Shown: positions 7,911-48,984 of the stretch, piece after piece
Position numbering within the stretch: the stretch's first letter is position 1
Layout: every line of letters starts with the position of its first letter
DNA from: Escherichia phage phiE31-2
DNA: 51,468 nt
Strand: one strand, 5' to 3'
Sequence record: PP988008.1
The notes under the pieces: model-generated
Told to the model about the DNA's origin: nothing
The model's input: the letters and a program-made list of their open reading frames with translations, nothing else
Database searches by the model: none
Position numbers and translations under genes: made by a program

Positions 7911-7952
7911 CTATACACGATCTTGCGGTGGGCGTTTAGCAAAAAGTGCCAC
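7911..7952 (-). promoter_or_regulatory. conserved-motif promoter-like element (lipoprotein/RBP operon)
   Basis: Minus strand TGGCACTTTTTGCTAAAC - 18 nt - TATAGT, then RBS and ATG of lipoprotein. Confidence 0.5.
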
Positions 7953-8379: not shown

Positions 8380-9441
8380 ATGAATAAGTTTATGGCGTAC
8401 ACCAGCGAAGAAATGAGCAACGAGCTTTATCACAATCCAGAAGCGTGGACTGCTGATTATGTTAGCGGTTCAAGCCTGGCAGAGATTTACAGCACATGCC
8501 CGGCAGCGTGGAAGTTCAAGCCGCGTGACGACAAGAGCAAGGCGCTAGTTTTTGGTACGCAGTCGCATACCAATTTTGAAAGCAAGGAGCTTTTCGAAAA
8601 AACCTATCGCCGTGCGCCAGCGCCAGAAGACTTTAAGGATCTGATAACCAGCCAAACGGAGCTTGCTGCAAAGCTAAAATCATTTGGCCTGAAAGGTACA
8701 ACAGGAAAGACTTACCCTGAACTTATAAAAATGTTGGTTGACTGCGGAGAAGACCTTAACGTCATGTGGTTAATCGACATGATCGCAGAAAGTCAAGCCA
8801 GGGCCGATGGGGTTCAGTTAATCGAAGCTAAAGATTACGATGCGTGCGTGGCAATGCGCCAGGTTCTGGAATCAATACCGGAACATAACGCATGTATGAA
8901 TAGCAAGACGGCACAACGTGAATTATCGTTATTCGGTGAAATCAACGGCGTAAAAGTCAAAGTGCGATGCGATCACGTTGACGTAACAAAGAACGTGACA
9001 GCAACTCTTATTGATGGTTACGATGAAAAAGGTCAGCCGATTTGCCGCGATATTATTTATCCAGAAGCTATTGTGATCACTGACTACAAAACAACAATGA
9101 GCGCTAATCCGGTTGAGTTTATGCGCCTGGCTTACAATCACGGCTATTATTTGAAAATGGCGTTGCAATGTGATTTATTCAGAAAAGCGTATCCAGAAGA
9201 AAAGCGACCTATAGTTGTGCGACTGTTAGCGCAAGAGAAGAAAGAGCCTTATTTGCCGTTGGCTTTCCGCATGAACAGCGAGCAATTGAAGATCGGGCGC
9301 ATTCAGTACATGAGCGTAATTAACCAGTTTGCCATGTGCCAGCAACATGACGTTTGGCCTTCGTATTCAAACGGTGAGCCGGAGGTTTGCCTTGATACTC
9401 CTGATTGGGTGCGACGCCAGTTTAAGCAATATCTTATTTAA
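8380..9441 (+). CDS. PD-(D/E)XK-family recombination exonuclease
   Basis: 353 aa; nuclease-like D..(ITDYK) motif; precedes Erf and SSB genes; strong upstream sigma70-like promoter. Confidence 0.65.
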   Translation: MNKFMAYTSEEMSNELYHNPEAWTADYVSGSSLAEIYSTCPAAWKFKPRDDKSKALVFGTQSHTNFESKELFEKTYRRAPAPEDFKDLITSQTELAAKLKSFGLKGTTGKTYPELIKMLVDCGEDLNVMWLIDMIAESQARADGVQLIEAKDYDACVAMRQVLESIPEHNACMNSKTAQRELSLFGEINGVKVKVRCDHVDVTKNVTATLIDGYDEKGQPICRDIIYPEAIVITDYKTTMSANPVEFMRLAYNHGYYLKMALQCDLFRKAYPEEKRPIVVRLLAQEKKEPYLPLAFRMNSEQLKIGRIQYMSVINQFAMCQQHDVWPSYSNGEPEVCLDTPDWVRRQFKQYLI

Positions 9442-13953: not shown

Positions 13954-15908
13954 TATACAATTTCCCCCAATTGATGATCTGTTAATGCCTTATGCCAGAT
14001 CCTAAAGTTTCTAATGTGTCCAAACAAATGGCGCTCTCCAGTTCCTGTTTGTCCGCCAAACCTGATATTTTTATCTCCTGTTACGCCTATGTAATCGCAG
14101 TATGAATCAGACACTGCTATAGCATTGGTGACAACATGAAATTTGCCATCAGATTTTGCAATGCATCCAAAAGTGGATTTTTTTGCAAACACATCAGATG
14201 CCGCACTATTAATATATGCCCCAGCAGGCGTTGATAAACTCATGTATAATTTTCCACTTCCTCTATTTATTGCCGCAATTGCTGATTGACCAGTATTTGC
14301 AGCAGCTATATCCCAAACACGAGGGGCAGCATTTGGAGCAACATCCCAACACTTACTAACCTCAAGCAAAAAAGTAAACGGCAATTTATATAGGTTGTTT
14401 TTTGTTGGAATGCTAACAAGATCGCTAGCTCTCGTTGTTGGCATTGAAGTTATAATAAATGACGATGCTGTATTTCCAAGTTCAATTTGCGGCGTAGCCA
14501 TCGTTAACGTTGAATCAGAATAAAATGGTTCGTTGTTAATTTTATTAGTCATGTAAAATGCACAATTAACAGTGTCAACATTTTTATTGGCTGTATATGT
14601 CGCTTGATAATACATCCATTCGCCATCCTGTTCCACTTTAGCGGTTATAAGTGAAGTGTCGCCACTTACCGATGCAACCAAAGTATCAAGATCCAAATAA
14701 GAATCAGCAGAAAATGTATCTACTCCATCAATAATTGTAGACACTCGAAGCCTGCATCTTGCTTTAGCACCTTTAACCCTACAAGAAAAGGTGAAACTTT
14801 CACCTGACACCAAAGGGAATCTATCGGCTGTAACAACTCCATGAACGGTATAACCTCCAGTAGTACCAACAATACTTTCTACAGGGGTGACTGTAGCGTA
14901 GTTAAAACCACGATCATCCGTTCCGAAAGTTTTATTTAAAGAAGAATGAATAGTCCAAGAATCTGTTTTATTTGAGTTTCTTAGATAGTTAGTTCTTTGC
15001 CCTTCGATTAAAAGACCTTCTTTTTCAAAACGAGGTTCGTCAATCTCCGCAACAGTCAATACACCTGATTTGTTAATATAAGTTGCTGTTGAAGCGCGTG
15101 AAAATGTAACTACTTTATCTGTTGGCATAGTTATAACATCATTACCAACTGTTATTTTTTTGTAACCAGGCGCAAAGCCTGTAATCATCTCAAGAGAATC
15201 ATTAAACGGTATCCATACATCCGGCAGCGGTTGAAGCACATCTTTGTAAGGTTCTCCAGCTTGTTTTGCATATTCCTCCGCTTGATCGCGCGCAGTTTCA
15301 GCACCTGTCTTTGCGGTGTTAGCTGCATCGCGCGCTGATTCTGCGGCAGCCTTTGCACTTTCCGATCCAGTCTTTGCAGTGTTAGCTGCATCGCGCGCGG
15401 ATTCAGCAGCAGTCTTTGCAGAATCAGCGCCTTTCTTACTGTTTTCTGCATTTGTTGCGCTTATCTTCGCGTTATTCTCGCTAGTTTTAGCGGCATTCTG
15501 GCTTGCTGCGGCCGCAGCAGCATCGCTCTTTACGTCAGCCTGTATCTGTTGAAGTTTATCCCAATCAAATGTTTCGATGATCTCAATGAATCTGGCAAAT
15601 TCAGTTTCTTTACCCTGGTAATATCGCAGTGTTTCAGCGACATCTTGCGCCAGGCCATCAACAGTTATTGAATCATGAAGCATGATCAGATAGTTTGTCT
15701 TTGCTACAACAGCTCCGCCAGTAGTAATGGCGCGAATGCTTGTGTCGCTAATAACCTCAGTGATTACAGCGGCTTGCATTGGATTTGTTAAGAAAAATAT
15801 TGTTGCACCAGGGCGAATGAGTGTTAGCTGTTCGCGCCATTTTGTGCCGTATCCAGTTATATAACCTTGCGCGTCCATTGACGCCTGTCCGGTTCTGTAA
15901 ATTGCCAT
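13953..15908 (-). CDS. lateral tail fiber protein
   Basis: 651 aa from ATG with GGAGAAA RBS; N-terminal fiber-attachment-like region, Ala-rich repeated [15 protein letters not shown] motifs, beta-rich C-terminus. Confidence 0.75.
15290..15435. repeat. imperfect ~63-bp tandem repeats inside lateral tail fiber gene
   Basis: TCTTTGCRGTGTTAGCTGCATCGCGCGC...GATTC..GC.GCAG.CTTTGCA repeated with 63-bp period (Ala-rich protein repeats). Confidence 0.7.
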
Positions 15909-16995: not shown

Positions 16996-17469
16996 TTAGC
17001 AATTAGTGCTTTCAGGTTTATACAGGAATCCGCCAGGTTCATAATCTGACATTCTTACCACTCGCAACATTTCACGCTTATCACATCTCTTTGTGAGCGG
17101 TTTACCATTGGAATCAAATCGCAGATCTGGACGGCAGAATGACGCGCGATAGCCTTGACAACCATATTTCTTGTAATCGTTATGCACCTTTTGAGCGCCA
17201 GCGGCTGAAATCATACCGCGAACACGCCACTGATTTACAGTTTGCTGGCTAACGTTAAGACGTTTTGCCATTGCTGACACACTTCCGTAATACTCAATAA
17301 GGATGTCAAGTCGCGCTTTTAGCCCGGCGCGCACCTCATCTTTTAGAACATAATAACCTGTCGGTCGCTTGCGCTTCTTCTTGTCCTTGCCTCGTCTTGT
17401 TCCGTTATTGCCATTAATTGTGCGCTTGTCAATCTTGCCTGTTGATACTGCGATTCTTTTCTCTTTCAT
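16996..17469 (-). CDS. HTH DNA-binding protein, putative transcriptional regulator
   Basis: 157 aa; basic N-terminus (KDKKKRKR) and helix-turn-helix-like SAMAKRLNVSQQTVNQWRVRG; divergent from helicase gene. Confidence 0.6.
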   Translation of the reverse strand: MKEKRIAVSTGKIDKRTINGNNGTRRGKDKKKRKRPTGYYVLKDEVRAGLKARLDILIEYYGSVSAMAKRLNVSQQTVNQWRVRGMISAAGAQKVHNDYKKYGCQGYRASFCRPDLRFDSNGKPLTKRCDKREMLRVVRMSDYEPGGFLYKPESTNC

Positions 17470-17483
17470 TATTCATTCTCCAA

Positions 17484-17525
17484 TAGCATTTTTTGTTAAA
17501 CGATGATTTAATGATTGTGTATTAT
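17484..17525 (+). promoter_or_regulatory. conserved-motif element in helicase/HTH divergent region
   Basis: TAGCATTTTTTGTTAAAC - 18 nt - TATTAT; on the opposite strand a TTGAGT-16-TATAAT promoter for the HTH gene overlaps. Confidence 0.5.
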
Positions 17526-17558
17526 ACACGCCAAATGGCATTACTCAAAGGTTTTAGA

Positions 17559-19598
17559 ATGATTCCAAACATTGAAAAGCAAATATCAGCACTTGGTGAA
17601 GCGGTAATTAAATCCATTCAGGAGCGATTCACTGTTGGCGAGATTGTGCCTTACCCTTACCAGTGCATTGCATACGCTGAGATCGCAAAGCGTATGAAAA
17701 ATTATGAGCATCCATTCTTTGTTAAAGCGTCCGTATCTGCTGGCAAAACATTGATGTTTGCAATGGTTGCTCACCAGTGCCGGAAAATGGGCTTAAAAAT
17801 GATGGTACTTGCTCGCCAGGCTGAGATTGTGGATCAGGATTCTGAAGAGATAACAAATCTTGGTGTGCCGAACTCCATCTATTGTGCAGGACTGAAGACA
17901 AAAAGCGCATACTTTCCGATCGTTGTTGGTTCTGAGGGAACTGTAGTTAATGGACTTTTTAAAGCGCTTGGCGACTATGTTCCGCACGTTATCGGGATTG
18001 ACGAGTGTCACCAGGTGGATTGGGAAGACCTTGCCGACGCAATAGAGAAAGACGAATCATTTTTACAAATGACTACGAAGAAAGGCGAAAAAGTACCAAA
18101 TCCAGATTATGACATAGCGAGCGATAACGAATGCGAAGAGTTCCTGATTGGTGAGGATGGCTTGCCAATGGAGGGAACAGGTCGCACACAATACACTGTC
18201 ATTATCATGGAAATGATGCGCCGCTGCCGGAAAACATATGGTCATGAACTACGCATATTTGGTATGACTGGTTCTGAGTTTCGCGGCGTAGTCCCGATCC
18301 TGGTAGAAGACAAAAAACAAAAAGGATTTTGGCGTGAACAGGTTACTAATATTGACACCAACTACCTGATCAAATTCGGTTCTGTTGTGCCAACAAATTT
18401 TGGCGACGTTGGCGATCTAGGGTATGACCTTTCAGAGTTTGAGGCATCCAGCGAGGATGGCGTTGCAGACTTTGACGCTAAAACGCTTCGCAGGATGGAA
18501 CAAAAAATTCATGAAGAAGCGACCATGACAAAGAGCATCATGGCGAAAGTTCACGAGATCTGTAAAAACCGCAACGGCGTACTTGTGACATGTGCAGGAG
18601 AAAGGCATTGCAAAGAGGCAGCGGCAGCGTTGCCACTTGGAACTACTTACAGGATCATTACTGGTAAGACTGGCGACAATCAGCGCAAGGAGTGGTTGAG
18701 GGAAGCATACGAAGGGAAGGTAAAATACATCTTCCAGGTTCAGGCGCTAACTACTGGCGTTAACGTGCCGTTTTGGGATACGTCTGTTATTCTGCGTAAG
18801 ATTGGATCGCTAACTTTGCTGATTCAGCTTTTAGGACGAGGAATGCGACTTCTTAAGAAATGGCATAAGGAACAAGGCTTCAAGAAAGATGATCACCTTG
18901 TTATGGATTTTTCAGGAACGATGGACGAGTTAGGTGAGCTTTATTTTGATCCGATACTTGAACAGGCGCAACATCAGAAGCGATTCAGGAACGGTAAAGA
19001 TCCGAAGCCTTGTCCTGTTTGCGGAACTCTTAACAGCTATTACGCTCGTCGTTGTATGCACGTAGACGAAAACGGAAACAGATGTGAGTGGTTCTTTAAA
19101 TTCAGGACATGTGATGATCAGATTGACCCGCGCACTAAAAAGATTATTCAGCGCGGTTGTGGAACGAAAAATGATATTGCGGCCAGGGTATGCAGACATT
19201 GCGACATGTCATTGATTGACCCTAACGAGAAATTAAGCGGAAAGCACTACACAAAAAACGACTGGTTCCAGGTGCAATCTTTCTCGGTTGACATGACGAA
19301 AAACCAGAAAGGGATAATATTTAATTATGAGCTTTCCGATGGCATAGATACTTTCAGAGCGCGGGAAATATTTTTCCCTGAATCAGAAAGCCAGATTTGC
19401 CGCGCAAAATGGAGAAATGTTGCTCTTAAGCACATACCGGATCGCCGTATTGCTGGCATGGTGGCGAGCTATCGTAATGCACGAAAAATAATGCAATATG
19501 TGAATCACATCATGCCTCCATCGCGTGTTACTCACAGAAAGACTAGTAAGGGAGAAGATAATTTGTACAAGAAGGACTTTAATTATGGCAATGACTGA
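17559..19598 (+). CDS. DNA helicase (superfamily 2, DEAD/DEAH-like)
   Basis: Walker A SAGKT, motif II DECH, C-terminal Zn-ribbon-like CxxC pairs; start uncertain (ATG 17559 chosen downstream of promoter-like element, alternatives 17511/17535). Confidence 0.8.
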   Translation: MIPNIEKQISALGEAVIKSIQERFTVGEIVPYPYQCIAYAEIAKRMKNYEHPFFVKASVSAGKTLMFAMVAHQCRKMGLKMMVLARQAEIVDQDSEEITNLGVPNSIYCAGLKTKSAYFPIVVGSEGTVVNGLFKALGDYVPHVIGIDECHQVDWEDLADAIEKDESFLQMTTKKGEKVPNPDYDIASDNECEEFLIGEDGLPMEGTGRTQYTVIIMEMMRRCRKTYGHELRIFGMTGSEFRGVVPILVEDKKQKGFWREQVTNIDTNYLIKFGSVVPTNFGDVGDLGYDLSEFEASSEDGVADFDAKTLRRMEQKIHEEATMTKSIMAKVHEICKNRNGVLVTCAGERHCKEAAAALPLGTTYRIITGKTGDNQRKEWLREAYEGKVKYIFQVQALTTGVNVPFWDTSVILRKIGSLTLLIQLLGRGMRLLKKWHKEQGFKKDDHLVMDFSGTMDELGELYFDPILEQAQHQKRFRNGKDPKPCPVCGTLNSYYARRCMHVDENGNRCEWFFKFRTCDDQIDPRTKKIIQRGCGTKNDIAARVCRHCDMSLIDPNEKLSGKHYTKNDWFQVQSFSVDMTKNQKGIIFNYELSDGIDTFRAREIFFPESESQICRAKWRNVALKHIPDRRIAGMVASYRNARKIMQYVNHIMPPSRVTHRKTSKGEDNLYKKDFNYGND

Positions 19599-20004
19599 TA
19601 AAGGCGATTATCTAGAGTTTTACGAAAGAGATCCGACGGATACGCTAAAAGAGGAATCACACCAGATCGGGGCGTTTCAATGGTTGACTTATGCTTACCC
19701 TGAATTACTGGCATGGCATACGAAAAACGAGGGCGACAAGGGAATCGCCACCGCAATGATGGATCAGCAAGCTGGACTCGTTAAGGGAGTAAGTGATTTT
19801 ATCATCCTGATTGGATTAAAAGGCCGTTACCCGTTCGCGGCTATTGAGATGAAACGCGTCAATAAGTCTGGCAAGGGTAAGGCTTCACCAGTCAGCAAGG
19901 AGCAAAAAGCCTTCTTGCGCCGTGTGCGTGAACTTGGCGGATTCTCTGCCGTAACATACGGATATAAGCAATTCATGATCGCTGTAGAATACATGATGAA
20001 ATAG
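19585..20004 (+). CDS. VRR-NUC domain nuclease
   Basis: 139 aa; D..(AIEMK) PD-(D/E)XK core; overlaps helicase stop. Confidence 0.65.
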   Translation: MAMTDKGDYLEFYERDPTDTLKEESHQIGAFQWLTYAYPELLAWHTKNEGDKGIATAMMDQQAGLVKGVSDFIILIGLKGRYPFAAIEMKRVNKSGKGKASPVSKEQKAFLRRVRELGGFSAVTYGYKQFMIAVEYMMK

Positions 20005-21064: not shown

Positions 21065-21096
21065 TATTTCATCAAAACGAACAAGAGGAAAATAAA

Positions 21097-24208: not shown

Positions 24209-24241
24209 TTTTAAAATCCTCATATTCGTTCCGATGAAACA

Positions 24242-27053: not shown

Positions 27054-27084
27054 CGTTTATTTCTCCTTTCGTTTCGGTGAAGTG

Positions 27085-28628: not shown

Positions 28629-28910
28629 CTAATTAATGCCAACAACGTTAAAACTTACAGATTTTGTTGCGCTAAATACATACGCTTCAACAGCTTCACC
28701 AAATACACGAATTTTTCCATAGCCGTACTGCGCATTCATATTGCGCCAAACCGTTCTGTTAGAACAGAACGCGTTACCAGTCTTGATAAGATTATCCATC
28801 TCTTTTCTTAGGTCATGATAATCAAGCCAGAATCTATAAGCGCGTTGTTTAATGAGTTGCGCCTTGATGGTTTCGGCTGAGTTTTTAAAATCGCTGTTTT
28901 TGTAGGCCAT
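28629..28910 (-). CDS. hypothetical protein
   Basis: 93 aa; TAATG overlap with upstream gene. Confidence 0.5.
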   Translation of the reverse strand: MAYKNSDFKNSAETIKAQLIKQRAYRFWLDYHDLRKEMDNLIKTGNAFCSNRTVWRNMNAQYGYGKIRVFGEAVEAYVFSATKSVSFNVVGIN

Positions 28911-29104
28911 TACACAACCTCCATAAAAGTATTGAATCCACGCAGTTTGAAAGCATTGCCATGTTTAACAACGTTCCATGTCAGGCCGGAGTGATACGCA
29001 ACCATATCCTCAAGATCAATTGTGATGATAGCTCCTTTCTTAAAGATTCCTTTCTCGTGAGTGGCGTCACGCTGTACAACTTTAACGTCAACCTGATTTT
29101 CCAT
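28910..29104 (-). CDS. hypothetical protein
   Basis: 64 aa with GAGGA RBS downstream of promoter-like motif. Confidence 0.5.
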   Translation of the reverse strand: MENQVDVKVVQRDATHEKGIFKKGAIITIDLEDMVAYHSGLTWNVVKHGNAFKLRGFNTFMEVV

Positions 29105-29135: not shown

Positions 29136-29178
29136 AATATACCAATCAGAGGCGCATCGGTTTTAACAAAAAGTGCTA
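29136..29178 (-). promoter_or_regulatory. conserved-motif promoter-like element
   Basis: Minus strand TAGCACTTTTTGTTAAAAC - 18 nt - TATATT, the hexamer sitting in the loop of a GATGCGC/GCGCATC hairpin. Confidence 0.5.
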
Positions 29179-29974: not shown

Positions 29975-30012
29975 TTGCTTTCTCCTGATGGGTATCTCGT
30001 TTCGATGAGATA

Positions 30013-30055
30013 AATATACCAGGTTATTCCGATCGTGTTTTAACAAAAAGTGCTA
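30013..30055 (-). promoter_or_regulatory. conserved-motif promoter-like element
   Basis: Minus strand TAGCACTTTTTGTTAAAAC - 18 nt - TATATT upstream of 29702..29974. Confidence 0.55.
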
Positions 30056-30269: not shown

Positions 30270-30349
30270 AATCAAGCCTCCGCACTTTTAGATAACAGAT
30301 TCGGCGTTCATCAACAAAAAGAACAAAATAAATTTTATATATATACCCA

Positions 30350-30520
30350 TAAAATCAATAAGTTAGTTATATATGTATTTATATTTGTTATTTACTGTTG
30401 AGCTTGTTCTATGGGTATATGGTGGTGTTGTATTGTTTGTGGTGATATGTATGTGTGATTGTATATTTTTTAATCAATGGTGATGCGTGGTGATTTTTGT
30501 ATGTATATATATGGGTATGG
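30350..30520. repeat. AT-rich conserved core plus GTGAT(T) iteron cluster, copy B
   Basis: Homologous core and four or more GTGAT units; lies in the divergent early control region. Confidence 0.6.
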
Positions 30521-30645
30521 GGGAATCCTCCGTCAACCAAGTCAACAAGGTCATTTTTAACAGAGAAACCAATGTCTTAACTGAAGCATTTTGTTATCTT
30601 TAAACGCGCCACATGCCAAAAATTGTTATTAAAACACAAAATATA

Positions 30646-30674
30646 TTGACATGTAGGAAAGGCAAGGCAATAAT
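30646..30674 (+). promoter_or_regulatory. sigma70-like rightward early promoter
   Basis: TTGACA - 17 nt - AATAAT upstream of first rightward early gene. Confidence 0.5.
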
Positions 30675-30710: not shown

Positions 30711-31181
30711 ATGAATGAAGAAAATGTTAGTTCTATGTCGCGTAGTGAGTTCTGCGATATGCTTCGCGACTTGGGCGCGGCAATTGGTAGCGGCGAGCGT
30801 AACAATGTATTCATGCCAGCACTTTTCTTGTGCGCTAACGTGGAAAACGGCGACGCAATTACAGCCTCGTACATGCGCCAGGTGGTCAACCGTGTTCCAG
30901 AAGTAAAGCAAAAAGGCGTGATCAGCATTAAGCGAAAGGTGACTGATGAGGGTGATGGCTTTGTGTTTACGCTCACTGAAGCCAAAAGCAAGCCTCGCGT
31001 TCTGACTGGTGAAGATATAGCGAAACTTGAAATCAAGTGGCGAGCAAAGTTTATCGCTCAACTTCTGAAAACTCAGCCGAGAATCAGCGACCTGGAAGGC
31101 GAGCGCCTGGAGGGTGCAGCAATCGCACTTGAGCGAATGAATGAAATGCTTAGCGAGATGGTGAAGATGGGGGATGAATAA
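30711..31181 (+). CDS. hypothetical early protein
   Basis: 156 aa with AAAGGAG RBS; first rightward gene after AT-rich control region. Confidence 0.55.
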   Translation: MNEENVSSMSRSEFCDMLRDLGAAIGSGERNNVFMPALFLCANVENGDAITASYMRQVVNRVPEVKQKGVISIKRKVTDEGDGFVFTLTEAKSKPRVLTGEDIAKLEIKWRAKFIAQLLKTQPRISDLEGERLEGAAIALERMNEMLSEMVKMGDE

Positions 31182-31481: not shown

Positions 31482-31513
31482 AGCCTCATCGAAACGAGAT
31501 TGAGGAAAACAAA

Positions 31514-36406: not shown

Positions 36407-36449
36407 TAGCACTTTTTGTTAAAACTTCCGCGAGGGCATTTGTTAAAGT
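36407..36449 (+). promoter_or_regulatory. conserved-motif promoter-like element
   Basis: TAGCACTTTTTGTTAAAAC - 18 nt - TAAAGT. Confidence 0.45.
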
Positions 36450-36481
36450 GTCCTCATTGAAGCGAAACAGAGGAAATAAAA

Positions 36482-39055: not shown

Positions 39056-40623
39056 TGCTTATTTGGGAAGACTTAACAGCGGCGCAAAAACGCGCCGTTA
39101 AGGAAATGAGCGAATATTCATTCGAAAAGATGATCCGCATTTGGTTTCAACTTCTCCAGGGGCAAAGGTTCTTAGGAAACTGGCATTTCAGTTACCTATG
39201 CAGCGAAGTTGAAAAAATAATCAAAGGCGAGTCACAGAACGTAATTTTCAACATAACGCCAGGCAGTGGTAAAACAGAGATATTCTCGATCCACATGTCA
39301 CCTTATGCGTCATTGAAAAGTAAGAAGGTGAGAAATCTTAATTTGTCGTTTAGTGATGGCCTTGTCCAGCAGAATAGCAACCGCATCAAAGAGATTATTG
39401 GTTCTCCAGAATGGCAGGAGCTATGGCCTGGAAAGTTGGCAAAGGCGAGCGCAAAGGATCTGATTGTAACCGATGGCGGCAAGGTTAAATTGCAAGTTAA
39501 CTCGCGTTCTATCGGTGGTCAGGTTACTGGTCTGCGTGGCGGCTACATGGACGATGGATTTACTGGTATGCTGGTTCTTGACGATCCAGACAAGCCGGAT
39601 GATATGCTTTCTAAGGTGAAGCGCGAAGCCGGACACATGCGCCTAAAGAACACGGTGCGATCGCGTCGAATGAAGGACACCACGCCAATTGTGATGGTTC
39701 AGCAACGTCTACACGTCAATGATTCAACATGGTTCATGACAAACGGCGGCATGGGCGGCATCCAGTTTAAGGTGGTTAGTATTCCGGCGCTCGTTACTAA
39801 GGAATATCGCGAAACGCTTCCTGACTGGTTAAAGCCTGAGTTTGATCGCGATGTTTTGTCCAGTAAGCCAGTGATGATTGATGGTGTTGCCCATTATTCG
39901 TTCTGGCCTGCTAAGGAAAGCGCGGAGGAATTACTTGCACTTCGAAATGCTGATCCGTACACGTTCGCTAGTCAGTATCAGCAACAGCCTGTTGCGCTTG
40001 GCGGTAACGTGTTTAAAACAGAGTGGTTCCAGTATTACGGCAGCAGCGAGAAATGCACGCTACCAAAACCGGATCGCTTTGAATATACATTTATCACGGT
40101 TGATACCGCGCAGAAAACAGGTGAGCTTAACGACTACTCCGTGATCTGTTATTGGGGGATGTATAAAGATCGTGTCTACTTCATTGATGGCGTTCGCGGA
40201 AAATGGGAAGCACCGGACCTTGAGACGAATTTTGTTGCATTCGTTAATCAGTGCTGGAAGCGCAATAAAGAATGCGGAACGTTGAGAAGGATTCATGTTG
40301 AAGATAAATCGTCTGGCACTGGTTTGATTCAGAGTGCAGCGAAAAGAATCATGATCAAGATCAATCCCGTTCAGCGCGATAAAGATAAGGTTACGCGAGC
40401 AATGGACGCAGCGCCAGTAATGCGCGCCGGACGCGTAGCACTTCCAGAATCACATCCTATGCTGGCTGAGATACTTGCAGAGGTTGCGGCTTTTGCTTAT
40501 GATGATTCAGCGCCACACGATGATATTGTTGATAACATCATTGATGCGGTTAACATTGAAATGAACATGGCAGATGATCCGGTTGGAAGAATGAAAAAAT
40601 TGGCAGGTTTGCGGAACAAATAG
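39055..40623 (+). CDS. terminase large subunit
   Basis: 522 aa; Walker A-like NITPGSGKTE; C-terminal RNaseH-like nuclease acidic motifs (VDTAQ..., DDSAPHDDIVD). Confidence 0.85.
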   Translation: MLIWEDLTAAQKRAVKEMSEYSFEKMIRIWFQLLQGQRFLGNWHFSYLCSEVEKIIKGESQNVIFNITPGSGKTEIFSIHMSPYASLKSKKVRNLNLSFSDGLVQQNSNRIKEIIGSPEWQELWPGKLAKASAKDLIVTDGGKVKLQVNSRSIGGQVTGLRGGYMDDGFTGMLVLDDPDKPDDMLSKVKREAGHMRLKNTVRSRRMKDTTPIVMVQQRLHVNDSTWFMTNGGMGGIQFKVVSIPALVTKEYRETLPDWLKPEFDRDVLSSKPVMIDGVAHYSFWPAKESAEELLALRNADPYTFASQYQQQPVALGGNVFKTEWFQYYGSSEKCTLPKPDRFEYTFITVDTAQKTGELNDYSVICYWGMYKDRVYFIDGVRGKWEAPDLETNFVAFVNQCWKRNKECGTLRRIHVEDKSSGTGLIQSAAKRIMIKINPVQRDKDKVTRAMDAAPVMRAGRVALPESHPMLAEILAEVAAFAYDDSAPHDDIVDNIIDAVNIEMNMADDPVGRMKKLAGLRNK

Positions 40624-40653
40624 CACGAATCGACAAACCAATATATAATCAAA

Positions 40654-40677
40654 GGCTGGAAAATCCAGCCTTTTTTA
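40654..40677 (+). terminator. terminator-like hairpin between terminase and portal
   Basis: GGCTGGA-AAA-TCCAGCC then TTTTTT. Confidence 0.55.
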
Positions 40678-44857: not shown

Positions 44858-44874
44858 CACAAAATTATGTTGCA

Positions 44875-44893
44875 CGTTTAACAAAAAATGCTA
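44875..44893 (+). promoter_or_regulatory. inverted copy of conserved motif upstream of major capsid gene
   Basis: CGTTTAACAAAAAATGCTA (reverse complement of motif) about 45 nt upstream of ATG; overlaps a TTGCAC-16-TATCAT promoter-like pair. Confidence 0.4.
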
Positions 44894-44940
44894 TCATTGG
44901 GGCGTTACATACTAACGGCCTTTATATATGGAGGAAGAAA

Positions 44941-45915
44941 ATGGAAAAAGAAAAATTTGATCAGCTAGATGCGGATATTGTTTCTAGCTATCTGGCTACT
45001 CGCGGCGTTAAGGGTGATGCTTCTGATATGGGTATCTGGACGGCGCAAGAGCTTCACAAGATCCGCTCTAATGCTTACGAGAAAGAGTATCCGGCAGGTT
45101 CAGCGCTTCGTGTGTTCCCTGTAACTAATGAGCTTTCTGATACTGATAAGACTTTTGAATATCAGATGTTTGATAAGGTTGGTTACGCAAAAATTATTGC
45201 TGATTACACCGACGACCTGCCGACCGTTGACGCGCTGATGTCTAGCGAATTTGGTAAAGTGTTCCGCTTGGGTAACGCGTTCTTGATCTCCATTGACGAA
45301 ATCAAGGCTGGTCAGCGTACTGGCAAGAGCCTTTCCACTCGCAAGGCAAACGCAGCGCAAAACGCGCATGATCAGGAAGTTAACCGCCTGGTGTTTAAGG
45401 GTTCAAAACCGCATAAGATTCTTTCGGTGTTCGAACATCCTAACCTGACAAAGATCGTGTCTTCTGGCTGGTTAAGTAATGATGAAAACACTAAGTTCCC
45501 GCAGGATGCATCTGATGAACTGGAAAAGGCTATTGAAACCATTCAGACCATCACCAATGGTCAGCACCGAGCAACCAACATCCTGATTCCGCCGTCTATG
45601 CGCAAGGTTCTTTCCGTTCGAATGGAAAACACCACTGAAAGTTATCTGGAATACTTCCAGAAACAAAACAGCGGAATCACCATTGACTCAATCGCAGAGC
45701 TTGAGGATATTGATGGCGCTGGAACGAAAGGTTGCCTGGTATATGAGAAAGACCCGATGAACATGTCGATCGAAATTCCAGAAGCATTTAATATGCTTCC
45801 GGCGCAACCAAAAGATCTGCATTTCAAAGTTCCGTGCACTTCAAAATGTACTGGCCTGACGATTTACCGTCCGTTTACGCTAGTGCTTATTACTGGCTTG
45901 AAAAAATCAAGTTAA
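44941..45915 (+). CDS. major capsid protein
   Basis: 324 aa with GGAGG RBS; position after scaffold and before head-tail connector genes; followed by strong terminator. Confidence 0.7.
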   Translation: MEKEKFDQLDADIVSSYLATRGVKGDASDMGIWTAQELHKIRSNAYEKEYPAGSALRVFPVTNELSDTDKTFEYQMFDKVGYAKIIADYTDDLPTVDALMSSEFGKVFRLGNAFLISIDEIKAGQRTGKSLSTRKANAAQNAHDQEVNRLVFKGSKPHKILSVFEHPNLTKIVSSGWLSNDENTKFPQDASDELEKAIETIQTITNGQHRATNILIPPSMRKVLSVRMENTTESYLEYFQKQNSGITIDSIAELEDIDGAGTKGCLVYEKDPMNMSIEIPEAFNMLPAQPKDLHFKVPCTSKCTGLTIYRPFTLVLITGLKKSS

Positions 45916-45927
45916 TCGTATAACATT

Positions 45928-45956
45928 GGGGAATCCTTAACTGGATTCCCTTTTTA
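45928..45956 (+). terminator. rho-independent terminator after major capsid gene
   Basis: GGGAATCC-loop-GGATTCCC then TTTTT. Confidence 0.6.
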
Positions 45957-45970
45957 TTGGAGGTTATGAA

Positions 45971-46243
45971 ATGGCTAAAGAAAAAACTGTAACGCTAAAG
46001 GTTTCCGGCGTGTGCCTTATCATTGTTGATGGTGAGCATTATCATCCAGGCAAAGAGTTTGACGTAGAAGAATCAAAATTGAAAACAAGCGCGTTTGAAT
46101 ATCTAATTGCAAAAGGCGATCTGGAGGTTAAAGACAACTCCGCATTGAACGAAGAAATCAAACAGAGCGCAGCAAGCAAACGTAAAAAAGACCCGCGAGA
46201 GGGCAAGAGCAAAGCCGAACTTGAAGACGGCGGCATCTATTAA
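45971..46243 (+). CDS. hypothetical protein
   Basis: 90 aa with GGAGG RBS between capsid and connector genes. Confidence 0.5.
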   Translation: MAKEKTVTLKVSGVCLIIVDGEHYHPGKEFDVEESKLKTSAFEYLIAKGDLEVKDNSALNEEIKQSAASKRKKDPREGKSKAELEDGGIY

Positions 46244-46290
46244 TAAAGAGGGCGCTATAAGCGCCCTTTGTCATATCTGGAGGAAACAAA

Positions 46291-46707
46291 ATGGTTGATG
46301 AATTTTTCACTGACGCAGAAATCACGCAGCAAATCGTGAAATTAGCTCCACCGATGAAACAGATTGATCCAGATTTAATGGTGGCATGGATTGACCTGGC
46401 AAAGGAATTTGTTTGCAAGAAGCGGTTTAAAGAATCATATCCTAAAGCGGTTGCCCTTTATACTTTGCACCTTATGACGCTTGACGGAGCTATGAAGCAA
46501 GAAGGGGAAAGCGTAGAGAGTTACTCACGGCGCGTGGCGTCATTTTCCCTGACTGGTGAATTTAGCCAGACATTTGATCGCGTGTCCGGCGATTCAAGCG
46601 GAAAAGAGATTAGACAAACTCCGTGGGGCAAAATGTATGAGACGTTAAATAGAAAAAAAGGCGGTGGATTTGGCCTTGTGACTGGATTTCGGAGGCGCTG
46701 CAAATGA
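46291..46707 (+). CDS. head-tail connector protein
   Basis: 138 aa with GGAGG RBS; first of four coupled small genes preceding major tail gene. Confidence 0.5.
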
Positions 46708-47075
46708 ACTATAACGAGATCGCAAGAATGGCAACCGAAGGAATTAACTTCTTTAGTGATGGCAACGGTGAGTTTAAGTGCATAACGCAGCGTGGAAGCG
46801 TTGAAATCATCGGAGGCGAAGAAGTAGAAAAGCCAGAGATTAGTGTAATGATTAAGGGTTTAATTAGATCACCCAAAGTCCGAGAGATTGACGGCGAGAC
46901 AATACGAGTAACCGATAAGTTGGGAGTTTTTAACAATAAAGTTGAAATTAAGAACGGGTATCATATTGATGTTGATGGTGAATTATATGTTGTAGTTGAA
47001 GCAAGACCAATCAGACAAACCAATGTCACTGTTGCTTATCGGCCTATTTTGAGAAGGATTTCTGTACATGGCTAA
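46704..47075 (+). CDS. head-tail joining protein
   Basis: 123 aa; ATGA overlap. Confidence 0.5.
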
Positions 47076-47511
47076 AAACTACACGATAAGGGAATTTCAC
47101 GGCAACATTGATGCGTGGATAAACGCCGTTGATAGTGGACTAAAAGATTGCGTGGAGTTGTTCGCCGAAAAAGTACACACAGATTTGGTTAAGCGTTCTC
47201 CGGTAGATACTGGTCGTTACCGTGGAAACTGGCAGGTAACAGCAAATAAGCCGCCATTGTATGCGCTTAACCAGTACGACAAGCACGGCGACAAAACTAT
47301 CGCGGAAGGCAAGCGCGCCATATACGCAATATTACGAGGTGGCGGCGCAGTAAGAGCTATTTATTTTTCTAACATGCTTATTTATGCTAACGCGCTTGAG
47401 TACGGTCATTCAAAACAAGCGCCAGCGGGTGTGCTTGGTATTGTTGCCGTGAAATTGCGTTCATATATGGCTGAGGCAATAAAAGAGTCGAGGGCAAAAA
47501 ATGCACTATGA
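47068..47511 (+). CDS. neck protein (HK97 gp10-like)
   Basis: 147 aa; overlapping start; position. Confidence 0.5.
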   Translation: MAKNYTIREFHGNIDAWINAVDSGLKDCVELFAEKVHTDLVKRSPVDTGRYRGNWQVTANKPPLYALNQYDKHGDKTIAEGKRAIYAILRGGGAVRAIYFSNMLIYANALEYGHSKQAPAGVLGIVAVKLRSYMAEAIKESRAKNAL

Positions 47512-47899
47512 ATTAATGCTATCGGCGCGTAAGGCGCTGGCGACTGAATACGAAAGCAGATTCATGATCGCTTATGAAAACGTAGAGTTTACGCCACCTG
47601 GTGACGGTTCGCCGTGGTTGAAGTTTGACTATGCCGAAGTTGACACAGAATACTTGTCATTGGATCGAAAATGCGTTTCTTATATCGGAATGATTCAGAT
47701 TGGTATTGTGTTTCCACCAGGTTACGGAACTGACAGGCCGCGCGTTCTCGCTAAAGAGATTGCGCAATTCTTTTACGATGGTAAAATGCTGGAGCATGGT
47801 TATATATATGAGGGTGCAAGAGTTCACAAACCGCTCAAGAGTGAAAGCGGATGGCTTCTCCCTATAAGGTTTTATGTTCGAATTGAAACAAAGGAGTAA
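47501..47899 (+). CDS. tail completion / terminator protein
   Basis: 132 aa directly upstream of major tail gene. Confidence 0.5.
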   Translation: MHYELMLSARKALATEYESRFMIAYENVEFTPPGDGSPWLKFDYAEVDTEYLSLDRKCVSYIGMIQIGIVFPPGYGTDRPRVLAKEIAQFFYDGKMLEHGYIYEGARVHKPLKSESGWLLPIRFYVRIETKE

Positions 47900-47904
47900 A
47901 AATT

Positions 47905-48567
47905 ATGCATTTACCAAATGGATCGCAAATTTTCGTTGAGAGCAATCGCGGAAGCGAAATCCAAGCAACAGCAGTGTCAAACGCCAAAGATCCTGTTTTC
48001 ACTGTTGCATCTGGCGGCACTGCGTACAAGAAAGGTGATTATGTGATCATCACTGCGTCTTCTTGGGGTAAGCTGATTGATCGTGTTATGCGTGTAAAAG
48101 AAAACGGTCAAGAAACAAGCGTGACTCTTGAAGGCGTAGATACTACTGATCAGAACGTTTTCCCATCTGGCGGTACTGCATCTTTTGCCAAAATTGATGC
48201 ATGGACTGAGATCCCTTGCGTTCAGGATTTGTCGCAGGACGGCGGCGAACAGCAATACTACACTTATCAGTGTTTGGCAGACGATCAGGAACAGCAGTTA
48301 CCTACCTATAAGAGCGCCGTTTCTCTTACCTACACTTTTGCGCACGAATACGATAACGCGATCTATCCGTTACTTCGTGCAGCAGATGAATCCGGCGCTG
48401 TAACGGCGCTTCGTATGTATGTACCAAAAGCAAAAGAGATGCGTTGCTGGGCTGGTGTATTTTCATTTAACGAGATCCCACAAACGACAGTTAACGAAAT
48501 GGAAACCGTTTCCCTGTCTGTATCCCTGAAAGGTCGATTCACCTTCCTACCTTCTCAAGTATCATAA
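47905..48567 (+). CDS. major tail protein
   Basis: 220 aa with AAGGAG RBS; followed by strong terminator then G/GT chaperone genes and tape measure. Confidence 0.7.
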   Translation: MHLPNGSQIFVESNRGSEIQATAVSNAKDPVFTVASGGTAYKKGDYVIITASSWGKLIDRVMRVKENGQETSVTLEGVDTTDQNVFPSGGTASFAKIDAWTEIPCVQDLSQDGGEQQYYTYQCLADDQEQQLPTYKSAVSLTYTFAHEYDNAIYPLLRAADESGAVTALRMYVPKAKEMRCWAGVFSFNEIPQTTVNEMETVSLSVSLKGRFTFLPSQVS

Positions 48568-48574
48568 TCACAAG

Positions 48575-48596
48575 GGGCGTTGCGCCCCTTTTTTTG
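48575..48596 (+). terminator. rho-independent terminator after major tail gene
   Basis: GGGGCG-TTG-CGCCCC then TTTTTTT. Confidence 0.6.
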
Positions 48597-48633
48597 TTAC
48601 TGTACAATCAAGCTACACGATTCATAATCAATT

Positions 48634-48652
48634 CTTTTAACAAAAAGTGCTA
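48634..48652 (+). promoter_or_regulatory. inverted copy of conserved motif upstream of gpG
   Basis: CTTTTAACAAAAAGTGCTA ending 14 nt before the gpG ATG. Confidence 0.4.
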
Positions 48653-48666
48653 TCAAGGGGAAAGAA

Positions 48667-48984
48667 ATGTCAAAAATGAAATTGACGATTGGGCCGCTTC
48701 CTGACTTTAAATTACCAGTGAAATTTGCAATGCCTAACGGAGAAGATCAAACAATTATCTTCACAGTTCGCCACCGCAAAACAAGTGAGATTCACGAGCG
48801 CTACACGTCAGATACTCCAATGAGCGATGTTGAAATGATCACCTTCCTTGCTTCCGGTTGGAATCTTGATGATGAATTTAACGAAGAAAATATTAAACAG
48901 CTTCTTGATTACTACCCAGCGACAGCAATCGGATTAACTAGCGCATACATGAAAGCGCTTGCGGGGCAGCGAGTAAAAAACTAA
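48667..48984 (+). CDS. tail assembly chaperone (lambda gpG-like)
   Basis: 105 aa immediately upstream of tape measure; ends at slippery A_AAA_AAC. Confidence 0.7.
   Translation: MSKMKLTIGPLPDFKLPVKFAMPNGEDQTIIFTVRHRKTSEIHERYTSDTPMSDVEMITFLASGWNLDDEFNEENIKQLLDYYPATAIGLTSAYMKALAGQRVKN

Follow-up and report, generated by a model that had tools for sequence, protein, structure and literature searches.

One 17-nt motif of the T1-like phages appears to serve two promoter classes at once. In Escherichia phage phiE31-2 (PP988008.1; the window is the whole stretch of 51,468 nt), we find that its forward copies are predicted promoter elements, that its inverted copies overlap predicted sigma-70-type promoters facing the other way and that these inverted copies are conserved, none of which had been described. 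The arrangement suggests that one phage protein activates early genes and at the same time restrains three promoters, those of the major capsid gene, a gpG-like tail assembly chaperone gene and a helix-turn-helix (HTH) regulator gene.

The window comes from a T1-like phage (Drexlerviridae, Hanrivervirus) and is 97% identical to Escherichia phage JakobBernoulli and Shigella phage pSf-1. It holds 16 matches to the 17-mer TAGCAYTTTTTGTTAAA at ≤3 mismatches, 12 of them exact, where 0.91 would be expected; the enrichment is about 18-fold, and none of 100 shuffled sequences reached 16 matches. The sequence-only reading had described a 19-mer, of which this 17-mer is the core; the two flanking bases are not conserved between copies. 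The motif is asymmetric, with invariant G/C positions (TAGCAC). Fourteen copies are co-oriented with the next gene, and the capsid and gpG copies are inverted. All three copies that are inverted relative to a gene (capsid, gpG and HTH) are among the 12 exact cores, and phage T1 has all three.

The identical sequence element was reported from phage TLS as intergenic 21-nt direct repeats with the consensus aaATAGCACnnnTTGnTAAAA, seen also in T1, Rtp and Rogue1 and assigned no function (PMC11447400). Copies in the window fit this consensus, including its T and G sub-classes, and likewise lie ~76 nt before start codons, mostly along transcription. According to the text of that paper the repeats follow the direction of transcription; its table lists DR7 before the capsid gene on the opposite strand, which is left undiscussed there (PMC11447400). 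In the window, the rule of lying along transcription ~76 nt upstream of a start codon does not hold for the capsid and gpG copies, and the copy at 17484 obeys it for the helicase gene only. Absent from the TLS paper are the −10 at a constant 20 nt, the placement of a copy within the capsid promoter and, for the regulator and gpG genes, the modules with a shared −10. Our literature search found no transcriptome or 5′-end mapping for the T1-like phage family.

Forward copies are predicted promoter elements consisting of the motif, 20 nt and TAnnnT, without a −35 hexamer at 17-nt spacing. The 17-mer would thus form the upstream half of a family-specific promoter class, spanning about −49 to −33 and followed by a variable 20-nt spacer and the −10. 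In the window's forward copies, G at position 19 is present in 100%, A22 in 81% and T26 in 93%. Among 220 unique instances from relatives, 137 have A-11/T-7 at offset 20 and another 21 have it at offset 19; the remaining offsets have 0–41 instances each, mostly <30. No −35 hexamer is present at the forward sites, and the position at 17-nt spacing reads AAAACN in the window. The cassettes are stereotyped units of ~75 nt between same-direction genes that begin at the upstream stop codon, which the copies overlap. From this architecture, spacing and conservation, all observed, we infer promoter activity; since the forward sites lack a −35 hexamer, RNA polymerase probably needs a sequence-specific factor on the motif. 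One site is built in another register:

40621–40649, + strand: predicted promoter of the portal gene; its forward motif, TAGCACGAATCGACAAA, is degenerate and differs in register

Here TAGCAC occupies the −35 position, 17 nt before TATAAT (40644–40649), and a hairpin follows at 40651–40673. In many relatives the portal site carries the copy TAGCACGAATTGCTAAA, with zero mismatches to the relaxed consensus TAGCACNNNTTGNTAAA. A sigma-54 promoter (TGGCAC-N5-TTGC, with GG and GC at −24/−12), suggested by the copy at 7935 (TGGCAC...GC), was rejected because the GC in TGGCACTTTTTGCT is 2 nt too close and the other copies read TAGCAC, without GG.

At the capsid gene, the inverted copy makes up the spacer and the TG/−10 start (TGnTA) of a predicted sigma-70-type promoter:

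44870–44897, + strand: predicted sigma-70-type capsid promoter (−35 TTGCAC at 44870–44875, 16-nt spacer, TG at 44889–44890, −10 TATCAT at 44892–44897)
44877–44893, − strand: inverted 17-mer (TTTAACAAAAAATGCTA on the + strand, TAGCATTTTTTGTTAAA on the − strand)
44900–44920, + strand: terminator-like hairpin and T-run, beginning 2–3 nt past the capsid −10
44941–45915, + strand: major capsid protein gene (Pfam Major_capside, E = 4e-54; annotation of relatives)

The inverted motif claimed before the capsid and gpG genes was borne out at 44877–44893 and 48636–48652. The capsid copy had been placed in the 5′ leader just before the ribosome-binding site, and that assignment fails: the copy ends 36 nt before the Shine–Dalgarno sequence (SD; 44930–44934), with the hairpin in between, and, lying in the promoter spacer and TG/−10 start, it is not in a leader. 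The elements of an extended −10 promoter (a −35-like hexamer, a 16–18-nt spacer, TGn and TAnnnT) are present as TTGCAC, 16 nt and TG-c-TATCAT. In the window this −35 is weak; a simple promoter scan missed the promoter because TTGCAC matches at only 3 of 6 positions. In each of the 72 unique sequences upstream of the capsid gene, the corresponding promoter ranks first, with a 16–17-nt spacer, TG plus TATCAT, TATATT, TATTCT or TATTAT, and a −35 of TTGACG, TTGACC, TTGAAC or TTGCAC (TTGACC or TTGACG in many).

Most of 77 related loci have the capsid copy, with ≤2 mismatches, on the − strand ~50–70 nt ahead of the capsid ATG; T1 has it at 15069. Its spacer portion matches the motif at 0–1 mismatch in all lineages bar the most distant clade, even in some with a capsid protein ~55% identical; in that clade the copy has 2–4 mismatches (counted separately, among the 72 unique upstream sequences). 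The 16-nt spacer of a sigma-70 promoter carries no sequence requirement, yet the capsid spacer matches the motif. The hairpin past the promoter has a ΔG of −9.0 in the window; in other genera its stem differs in sequence and the ΔG ranges from −5 to −15. It is absent from the distant clade, and it was annotated as terminator T35 in TLS (PMC11447400). A predicted start ~7 nt past the capsid −10 would fall in its 5′ arm.

At the regulator gene, a single copy serves two divergent genes:

16996–17469, − strand: gene of a predicted Cro-like HTH protein, the product being a candidate motif-binding factor (PHROG 2856, 'transcriptional regulator', E = 6e-78)
17484–17500, + strand: dual-role motif copy, reading TAGCATTTTTTGTTAAA; forward for the helicase gene (ATG at 17559) and inverted in the HTH leader
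17520–17525, + strand: −10 (TATTAT) of the helicase promoter, predicted to be motif-dependent, 19 nt after the motif and overlapping the leftward TATAAT
17521–17548, − strand: predicted sigma-70 promoter of the HTH/primase operon (TTGAGT at 17548–17543, 16 nt, TATAAT at 17526–17521)

The sequence-only reading had this copy inverted relative to the leftward HTH gene; it is, 14 nt from the ATG (17469), and for the helicase gene, which runs rightward, it also serves as an ordinary forward copy. The promoter scan detected the HTH/primase promoter at 10 of 12 positions, and a perfect TATAAT stands 20–21 nt upstream of the leader motif in 36 of 37 unique sequences. The copy is the most conserved of all: it is kept in nearly all HTH-gene loci, including those with an HTH protein 57–70% identical, and lies at 36445 in T1.

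The gpG gene has a similar module:

48580–48608, + strand: predicted sigma-70-type gpG promoter (−35 TTGCGC at 48580–48585, 17-nt spacer, −10 TACAAT at 48603–48608)
48610–48615, − strand: TAGCTT, a −10-like hexamer that follows the inverted motif at exactly 20 nt
48636–48652, − strand: inverted 17-mer, reading TTTAACAAAAAGTGCTA on the + strand
48667–48984, + strand: gpG-like tail assembly chaperone gene (Pfam Phage_TAC_4, E = 2e-31)

The inverted copy ends 14 nt before the ATG and 4 nt before the SD, and together with TAGCTT it constitutes a predicted leftward, antisense motif-promoter with the geometry of the forward cassettes. It was found in 17 unique sequences from several genera, plus T1, which has TAAGAT at the leftward −10 position. 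After the motif on the − strand, T21, A22 and T26 are conserved in 17 of 17 unique copies, and the inner −10 bases and the 20-nt spacer vary among them; lineages without the gpG motif also lack the conserved TAnnnT bases. The T/A/T conservation could in part serve the start-site region of the rightward promoter. A distance of 1 bp separates the leftward −10 from that of the rightward gpG promoter, the −35 of which (TTGCGC) lies inside the major-tail terminator hairpin (48572–48590); a TGTAnAAT / TGCATAAT box after this terminator is kept in all lineages, motif present or not.

The gpG and HTH copies do lie in leaders, as had been proposed, 2–5 nt from the SD in every lineage; they are more than passive sites, each belonging to a full predicted cassette (motif, 19–20 nt, TAnnnT) that points away from the gene, with a −10 that abuts or shares that of the gene's own promoter. 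In relatives, the capsid and regulator copies are near family-wide and the gpG copy is lineage-variable. The same-position comparison put forward with the original proposal came out in its favour, positions being kept in distant relatives including T1; the gpG copy is absent from TLS-like and Klebsiella-phage-like lineages.

A factor acting at the motif would most likely be the Cro-like HTH protein, our candidate binder. Its Pfam scores are sub-threshold (YdaS_toxin, 29.8 bits with a cut-off of 30; P22_Cro, 25.2 bits with a cut-off of 30.2), and residues 54–91 match two Cro-like PDB chains, 5w8y (E = 2e-5) and the Cro protein 3bd1 (E = 3e-4). The protein occurs in 842 phage records, the organism names listed being those of T1-like phages; it is a core gene product of the family, ~70% identical where the capsid protein is 55% identical. 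Besides it, no recognisable regulator was found among the ~30 early open reading frames. Dimeric proteins of the Cro type do not usually have asymmetric sites; the binder could also be encoded by one of the many early open reading frames of no assigned function, or a host factor could bind.

The model we favour, held at slightly less than an even chance, is that a phage factor, probably this HTH protein, activates the forward sites and antagonises the capsid, gpG and HTH promoters. We also infer its binding, its identity, the direction of regulation and the release of the late promoters. Each inverted copy would be a site placed to interfere with an oppositely oriented, ordinary sigma-70 promoter. 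In the HTH transcript, the motif would lie at about +14 to +30, and it would drive the divergent helicase promoter, the two promoters sharing a near-palindromic −10 (TATTATA); once bound, the factor would divert polymerase away from the regulator gene and towards the helicase gene, a form of autoregulation. At gpG, the two −10s are 1 bp apart, and two open complexes would therefore exclude each other. At the capsid gene, the bound factor would occlude a promoter of which the motif is the spacer and TG/−10 start. If so, the active factor would keep early and middle genes on and hold back the regulator, capsid and gpG promoters. The operator interpretation of the sequence-only reading thus survives in part: the positions suit position-dependent roles, including autoregulation of the HTH gene, with the capsid copy lying outside a leader. 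If the factor represses the capsid promoter, something must remove or outcompete it late, and the DNA reveals no means for this. Neither late copy is essential, since several lineages lack the one at gpG, and one clade that keeps the regulator shows 2–4 mismatches in the one at the capsid gene.

The host RNA polymerase might instead read the motif directly, as a UP-like or −35-like element of an unusual kind. This would make the forward cassettes constitutive host-type promoters, and those at gpG and HTH would act as divergent or antisense promoters that compete with the facing ones without a phage regulator. The UP consensus register is about −41; the motif's AAA block ends near −33, the wrong register, even if TTTTT-NNN-AAA(A) resembles an UP element. 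That likeness was raised by the TLS authors (PMC11447400). TTAAAA (19-nt spacer) or TTGTTA (22-nt spacer) could be read as a poor −35, the portal promoter has TAGCAC exactly there at 17-nt spacing, and the T1-like family is not known to encode a sigma factor or an RNA polymerase. However, 12 identical 17-mers with an invariant TAGCAC go far beyond what UP or −35 conservation needs, and the full motif in the capsid spacer across genera is left unexplained, which makes this account unlikely. A role in repression alone, with the Cro-like protein binding all copies for global dampening or shut-off, we regard as rather unlikely. It would cover the upstream promoter region at forward sites and the core promoter at the capsid gene, and would act as a leader roadblock at gpG and HTH. 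Cro-family proteins are typically repressors, and all inverted-copy positions fit repression; the TLS authors likened the repeats to the stoperators of mycobacteriophage L5 (PMC11447400). Against it, forward cassettes without a usable −35 should be weak unaided, leaving little to repress, the strict 20-nt spacing from motif to −10 suits a polymerase-contacting activator and is needless for a blocker, and global silencing has no obvious use in a family described as virulent.

Two further explanations were considered. The copies could be neutral relics left where duplication or recombination had spread a mobile promoter cassette, in some cases inverted and without function. The stereotyped ~75-nt units starting at a stop codon accord with this idea, as does the presence or absence of the gpG copy among otherwise related lineages; it is nevertheless improbable, given that the capsid and HTH copies keep place and orientation at 55–70% protein identity while the flanking intergenic sequence diverges, and that TAnnnT is invariant at gpG while the surrounding spacers vary. 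Alternatively, the leader motif UUUAACAAAAAGUGCUA by the gpG and HTH SDs could pair with the forward motif in read-through early transcripts, the 17-bp duplex blocking translation or triggering cleavage. The constant proximity of these copies to the SD is in keeping with such pairing, and forward copies overlapping an upstream stop between same-direction genes would be present in read-through RNA. But the forward and capsid copies lie upstream of their own predicted start sites, exact DNA spacing to a −10-like hexamer is meaningless for RNA pairing, and Rfam covariance models at gathering score gave no match anywhere in the window; we consider this highly improbable.

The motif and its predicted promoters have parallels in known systems. 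Like the L5 stoperators, the motif is an asymmetric site with many copies throughout the genome, whose orientation is biased with respect to transcription; stoperators block elongation from within transcription units, whereas most copies here are at a fixed distance upstream of a −10. Only the gpG and HTH-leader copies are in a stoperator-type position, in predicted transcribed DNA past the promoter; the forward and capsid copies are upstream of predicted starts. The middle and late promoters of phage Mu, activated by Mor and C, have a good −10, no −35 and a dyad activator site at about −51 to −33. Forward sites here share the good −10, the missing −35 and an upstream site near −41 to −43, with the motif at ~−49 to −33; they differ in that the motif is asymmetric and the recognisable regulator is Cro-like, with no Mor-family match in a Pfam search of the HTH protein. 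Lambda CII is a small HTH activator that binds non-palindromic TTGC-N6-TTGC sites flanking the −35 of −35-poor promoters, and the CII-activated antisense promoter PaQ delays late gene expression. PaQ is antisense to the late-gene pathway, as the predicted leftward gpG promoter would be; motif, spacing and protein differ here, and the T1-like family is described as virulent.

In Bacillus phage phi29, protein p4 operates a switch at the divergent A2b and A3 promoters, with the factor site overlapping a −35. The geometry of the HTH/helicase and gpG modules resembles this: a single factor site would serve two close, opposed promoters, recruiting polymerase to the −35-less one and shutting the facing one, of sigma-A or sigma-70 type. 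Here, by contrast, there is no p4 homologue and the −10 elements overlap or abut. Since early and middle genes would be driven by the promoters that depend on the factor, and those shut would include late ones, the temporal sense may be reversed relative to phi29.

The window is a complete or nearly complete genome (51.5 kb) of a T1-like siphovirus, sharing 97% identity over 5 kb with Escherichia phage JakobBernoulli (Bas07) and Shigella phage pSf-1, both classified as Drexlerviridae, Tempevirinae, Hanrivervirus. T1 belongs to the classic set of seven T phages, and its relatives, the Drexlerviridae, are abundant coliphages and Klebsiella phages. Gene names were taken from the JakobBernoulli and pSf-1 records and from Pfam and PHROG scans, which identify the genes discussed here as follows:

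16996-17469, minus strand: 'transcriptional regulator' of 157 aa (the HTH gene)
17559-19598: helicase gene
44941-45915: major capsid gene
48667-48984: gpG-like tail assembly chaperone gene

The repeated element of this genome has a conserved 17-nt core, TAGCAYTTTTTGTTAAA, with 16 matches at ≤3 mismatches, 12 of them exact; 0.91 matches are expected in the window, and 0 of 100 shuffles gave 16. Reading orientation from an alignment of all copies in motif orientation, we found 14 copies co-oriented with the next gene. A sequence-only reading had described inverted copies at the capsid, gpG and HTH genes, which the sequences bear out: the copies at 44877-44893 and 48636-48652 are oriented against the capsid and gpG genes, respectively, and the copy at 17484-17500 opposes the leftward HTH gene, whose ATG is 14 nt away as that reading had it, and runs along the rightward helicase gene, for which it is also a forward copy.

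A 2024 re-annotation of phage TLS describes a 21-nt direct repeat, aaATAGCACnnnTTGnTAAAA, whose 18 intergenic copies lie 'in the direction of transcription' at ~76 nt ahead of start codons, and notes that T1, Rtp and Rogue1 also carry a repeat of this type (PMC11447400). By sequence, the window's element is a member of this published T1-like repeat, whose stated orientation rule is broken by the window's inverted copies. The TLS authors guessed at UP elements, enhancer sites or stoperators and left function an open question (PMC11447400). Their main text, in which all repeats follow transcription, is at odds with their own Supplementary Table S1: DR7, on the negative strand at 15044..15024 directly before 'terminator' T35, is opposed in the rightward late region, and the text makes no remark on its opposite strand (PMC11447400). 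In TLS (locus L023 among the fetched relatives), DR7 corresponds to the capsid copy. We found the motif sequence in no paper except PMC11447400, and our literature search returned no transcriptome of the T1-like phage family. The motif is already known; as far as we could find, the architecture of its inverted copies has not been described.

Forward units follow a common order: an upstream stop codon (AAATAG or TAAATAG), the motif, a 20-nt variable spacer, a −10-like hexamer (CATAAT, TATAAT or TATATT), a short leader often beginning TCATCGAAACGA, the Shine-Dalgarno sequence (SD) and the ATG. Among the window's copies, the base at position 19 after the motif is always G (100%), while 81% have A at position 22 and 93% have T at position 26. 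Pooling the window, T1, JakobBernoulli and 170-odd related loci gave 220 unique motif instances. Of these, 137 have the A-11/T-7 pair at offset 20 and 21 have it at offset 19, with counts at other offsets of 0-41, mostly <30. Setting the −10 at −12 to −7 puts the motif at about −49 to −33, and the −35 window at 17-nt spacing reads AAAACN. Given this tightly fixed spacing and the lack of a −35 hexamer, the forward copies look like promoters that depend on a factor bound to the motif. They would work much like the Mor/C-dependent promoters of phage Mu, although the site here is no dyad and the candidate protein is not of the Mor/C family.

The capsid copy has a different setting. On the plus strand, the region reads TTGCAC-g-TTTAACAAAAAATGC-TATCAT, which contains a sigma-70-type promoter with a 16-nt spacer:

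44870-44875, plus strand: −35 of the capsid promoter
44889-44890, plus strand: TG extension
44892-44897, plus strand: −10 of the capsid promoter

A simple promoter scan missed this promoter because TTGCAC scores only 3/6, a caveat for this genome. An unbiased search for the best sigma-70-type promoter found an equivalent in 72 of 72 unique upstream sequences, with TTGACG, TTGACC, TTGAAC or TTGCAC as −35 and TATCAT, TATATT, TATTCT or TATTAT as TG-extended −10. The spacer of the capsid promoter is filled by the reverse complement of the motif, which also supplies the TGnTA, and it matches the motif with 0-1 mismatch in all lineages but the most distant clade. The spacer of a sigma-70 promoter has no sequence requirement of its own, and retention of the motif match therefore suggests a second constraint; the obvious candidate is that the reader of the forward copies, whatever it may be, recognises this site too. 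The capsid copy is thus inverted, as the sequence-only reading held, but it is not a leader element lying just before the SD: it ends 36 nt upstream, a hairpin intervenes and it sits in the promoter.

We also considered, and rejected, an antisense promoter at this copy. Only 5% of 34 unique capsid copies have T at −7, which leaves no usable −10 on the opposite strand; the CATAAT found 7 nt after the capsid motif, a further candidate for an antisense −10, is confined to the window's own genus.

At both the capsid (44900-44920) and portal (40651-40673) genes, a terminator-like hairpin followed by a T-run begins 0-3 nt past the −10. Stem sequences of these hairpins vary between genera and pairing is preserved; the capsid-leader hairpin was judged by single-sequence folds, and its loop lengths differ between sequences. 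A start ~7 nt past the −10 would fall in the 5' arm, so that upstream read-through would stop and local transcripts would escape. The capsid hairpin is annotated as terminator T35 in TLS (PMC11447400).

The gpG and HTH copies belong to modules with predicted promoters in both directions:

48580-48585, plus strand: −35 (TTGCGC) of the gpG rightward promoter
48603-48608, plus strand: −10 (TACAAT) of the gpG rightward promoter, 1 bp from the leftward hexamer
48610-48615, minus strand: gpG leftward −10-like hexamer, 20 nt after the inverted motif
17548-17521, minus strand: HTH-gene leftward promoter TTGAGT-16-TATAAT, from the promoter scan
17520-17525, plus strand: predicted motif-dependent helicase −10 (TATTAT), on the other strand of the HTH TATAAT near-palindrome

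At gpG, all 17 unique copies have a TAnnnT on the minus strand at precisely 20 nt past the motif, with T21, A22 and T26 each at 100%. The hexamers include TAGCAT, TAGAGT, TAGGAT, TATATT and TACGAT, with TAAGAT in T1, and the spacers between motif and hexamer are unrelated in sequence. The gpG rightward promoter is kept in all lineages, motif present or not; the T/A/T pattern is absent in the motif-less lineages, which indicates that it belongs to the motif unit. At the HTH gene, 36 of 37 unique sequences carry a perfect TATAAT at a distance of 20-21 nt from the motif. Judged by these elements, the gpG and HTH copies are complete predicted motif-promoters that face away from the gpG and HTH genes. 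In both modules, the motif and an ordinary −35 flank a −10 that is shared or abutting, from which we infer that two open complexes could not form together. In logic, the two bidirectional modules would resemble the phi29 p4 switch at A2b/A3, without homology, and the leftward promoter at gpG recalls the CII-dependent PaQ of lambda.

The inverted motif as gpG's own promoter (TGCTATCAA) was rejected because the SD follows within 2-5 nt, which would put the start at or after the SD, and because it has no −35. At 48572-48608, the hairpin of the major-tail terminator contains the gpG −35 (TTGCGC) within its loop and 3' arm, an overlap of terminator and promoter that is kept across the family and fits the 'transcripton' idea attributed to T1 by the TLS authors (PMC11447400).

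Conservation of the inverted copies was followed in 77 loci around capsid-gene relatives (53-99% protein identity), in 44 and then 54 loci around HTH-gene relatives, and in the T1 genome. The capsid copy lies on the opposite strand ~50-70 nt before the ATG with ≤2 mismatches in most loci, down to ~55% capsid identity; in one distant clade, the copy has decayed to 2-4 mismatches. The HTH copy occurs in every group, including those with a 57-70% identical HTH protein. The gpG copy was found in 17 unique sequences from several genera plus T1, and is absent in TLS-like and Klebsiella-phage-like lineages, where leaders are ~35-45 nt shorter; these natural relatives show that a phage lacking the roughly 45-nt gpG motif block is viable. 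Klebsiella-phage-like loci also have motif-like matches near 9100, which fall within the coding sequence of the major tail gene (MHLPNGAK) and were dismissed as chance. The sequence-only reading had named absence of the motif at the equivalent positions in relatives as grounds for its own refutation; this refutation applies to none of the three copies, whose conservation is stronger than that reading could have known. One close relative, IMGVR_UViG_2974632794_000001 (loci L010, L091 and L143), has additional bases separating the capsid SD from the ATG, a capsid motif 1 nt shorter and a disrupted region upstream of the HTH gene, oddities that could reflect assembly errors or a defective genome.

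A candidate for the binding factor is the HTH protein (bas07_0038 in JakobBernoulli, ST23 in T1), which matches PHROG 2856 'transcriptional regulator' at 6e-78. Its residues 54-91 match Cro-like PDB chains (5w8y, 2e-5; 3bd1, 3e-4), and the Pfam families YdaS_toxin and P22_Cro score just under their cut-offs. Ahead of the HTH is a strongly basic N-terminal stretch, RRGKDKKKRKR (basic region, residues 18-36), and a conserved C-terminal block (104-129) contains three invariant cysteines, Cys104, Cys112 and Cys129, which could serve in metal binding or oligomerisation. The HTH gene overlaps the primase gene by 47 nt. Among ~30 early ORFs, most without known function, we recognised no other regulator. 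The protein is better conserved than the capsid protein, with ~70% versus ~55% identity in one and the same distant clade. It occurs in 842 phage records, with T1-like phages as the organism names shown, and a profile search of viral contigs for distant relatives returned only contigs of T1-like size and arrangement. Because motif and protein are both family-wide, their co-occurrence cannot discriminate between binder candidates.

We tentatively propose, at slightly less than even confidence for the mechanism as a whole, that a phage factor, probably the Cro-like HTH protein, activates the forward sites and antagonises the three inverted-copy promoters. Bound to the motif and centred near −41 of promoters that have no −35, it would help polymerase to start transcription of early and middle genes. 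At the HTH gene, it would move polymerase from the regulator promoter to the helicase promoter, a form of autoregulation; at gpG, it would fire the leftward promoter and so exclude the gpG promoter; and at the capsid gene, it would block the promoter by occupying its spacer and −10. The sequence-only reading's operator with position-dependent roles and autoregulation would then be right in spirit, although its capsid copy is not a leader site. A wider reading, in which this compact direction switch and its late release set T1-like gene timing through one autoregulated Cro-like protein, is more doubtful. Where a shared or abutting −10 lies between the 17-bp site and an ordinary −35, the protein would set the direction of host polymerase; it would turn ~14 early or middle promoters on and its own gene off, and hold back capsid and tail-chaperone transcription until replication multiplies the sites or the factor decays.

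Several rival explanations address the same sites. Host polymerase might recognise the motif directly; T1-like phages have no known polymerase or sigma gene of their own (PMC11447400), and a sigma-54 promoter was rejected on wrong spacing and the lack of GG in most copies. A motif-bound factor might instead act as a repressor only, a view to be set beside the fixed distance between motif and −10-like hexamer. Compared by eye, the motif has no convincing match to the consensus sequences of IHF, Fis or CRP sites. Transcripts of forward and inverted motifs might also pair as RNA; the Rfam families tested were excluded. Lastly, the inverted copies might be neutral relics of a mobile cassette, to be weighed against their conservation and the motif match kept in the capsid spacer.

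For further study, this anatomy offers one candidate protein, three promoter modules and five predicted starts, near 17532, 44904 and 48615 on the plus strand and near 17514 and 48603 on the minus strand. If the circuit is true, the T1 family would have its first described regulatory circuit, and the TLS authors' question would be answered. A model that holds would provide a small, portable one-protein switch that reverses promoter direction, and would explain the coupling of capsid and tail-chaperone expression to the early programme; should it fail, one would still have to account for the motif's conserved position within the capsid promoter.

Several smaller features of the forward cassettes were recorded. 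TCATCGAAACGA is a second conserved element that begins ~4 nt after the −10 of many forward cassettes, which would put it at the very 5' end of the predicted transcripts. Its copies, five with ≤1 mismatch, are:

21069-21080: TCATCGAAACGA copy
24226-24237, minus strand: TCATCGAAACGA copy
27069-27080, minus strand: TCATCGAAACGA copy
29997-30008, minus strand: TCATCGAAACGA copy
31486-31497: TCATCGAAACGA copy
36454-36465: TCATCGAAACGA copy

The flanks of TCATCGAAACGA co-vary (ctc...gag, ttc...gaa), which suggests a small stem. The variable region between motif and −10 is often a G+C-rich dyad of 5-6 bp, differing in sequence per cassette; in some cassettes the dyad encloses the −10 instead of the spacer, and a terminator scan flags some of them:

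20002, 21022, 24268 (minus strand), 27111 (minus strand), 31439: motifs of cassettes with spacer or −10 dyads
26435 (minus strand), 29162 (minus strand), 32894, 34111, 36407: further motifs cited for such dyads

Most forward motifs have the preceding gene's stop codon (AAATAG, TAAATAG) inside or abutting them, for example at 20002, 21022, 31439 and 36407, and at 30039-30055 the whole motif is read through by the upstream ORF; cassettes and coding sequences are packed end to end. At the portal gene (40621-40649), a forward motif of a G sub-class, degenerate in the window, is set in a different register, with TAGCAC at the −35 position 17 nt ahead of a perfect TATAAT. The relaxed consensus TAGCACNNNTTGNTAAA is matched without mismatch (TAGCACGAATTGCTAAA) at this position in many genera; T1 and TLS-like phages lack the portal copy. 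The forward cassette with its motif at 29162 is predicted to express a 64-aa early protein (28910-29104, minus strand) that matches Pfam PF25180 'Phage antiviral trigger protein Gp54' (E = 1e-37). Between divergent early gene blocks lies a non-coding, very A+T-rich stretch of ~350 nt (30290-30640) with degenerate TATATAT and GGTGAT repeats; it might serve as an origin or for immediate-early control, or might be a genome-end region. Next to it, at 30646-30674, the gene at 30711 has a predicted sigma-70 promoter close to consensus (TTGACA-17-AATAAT).
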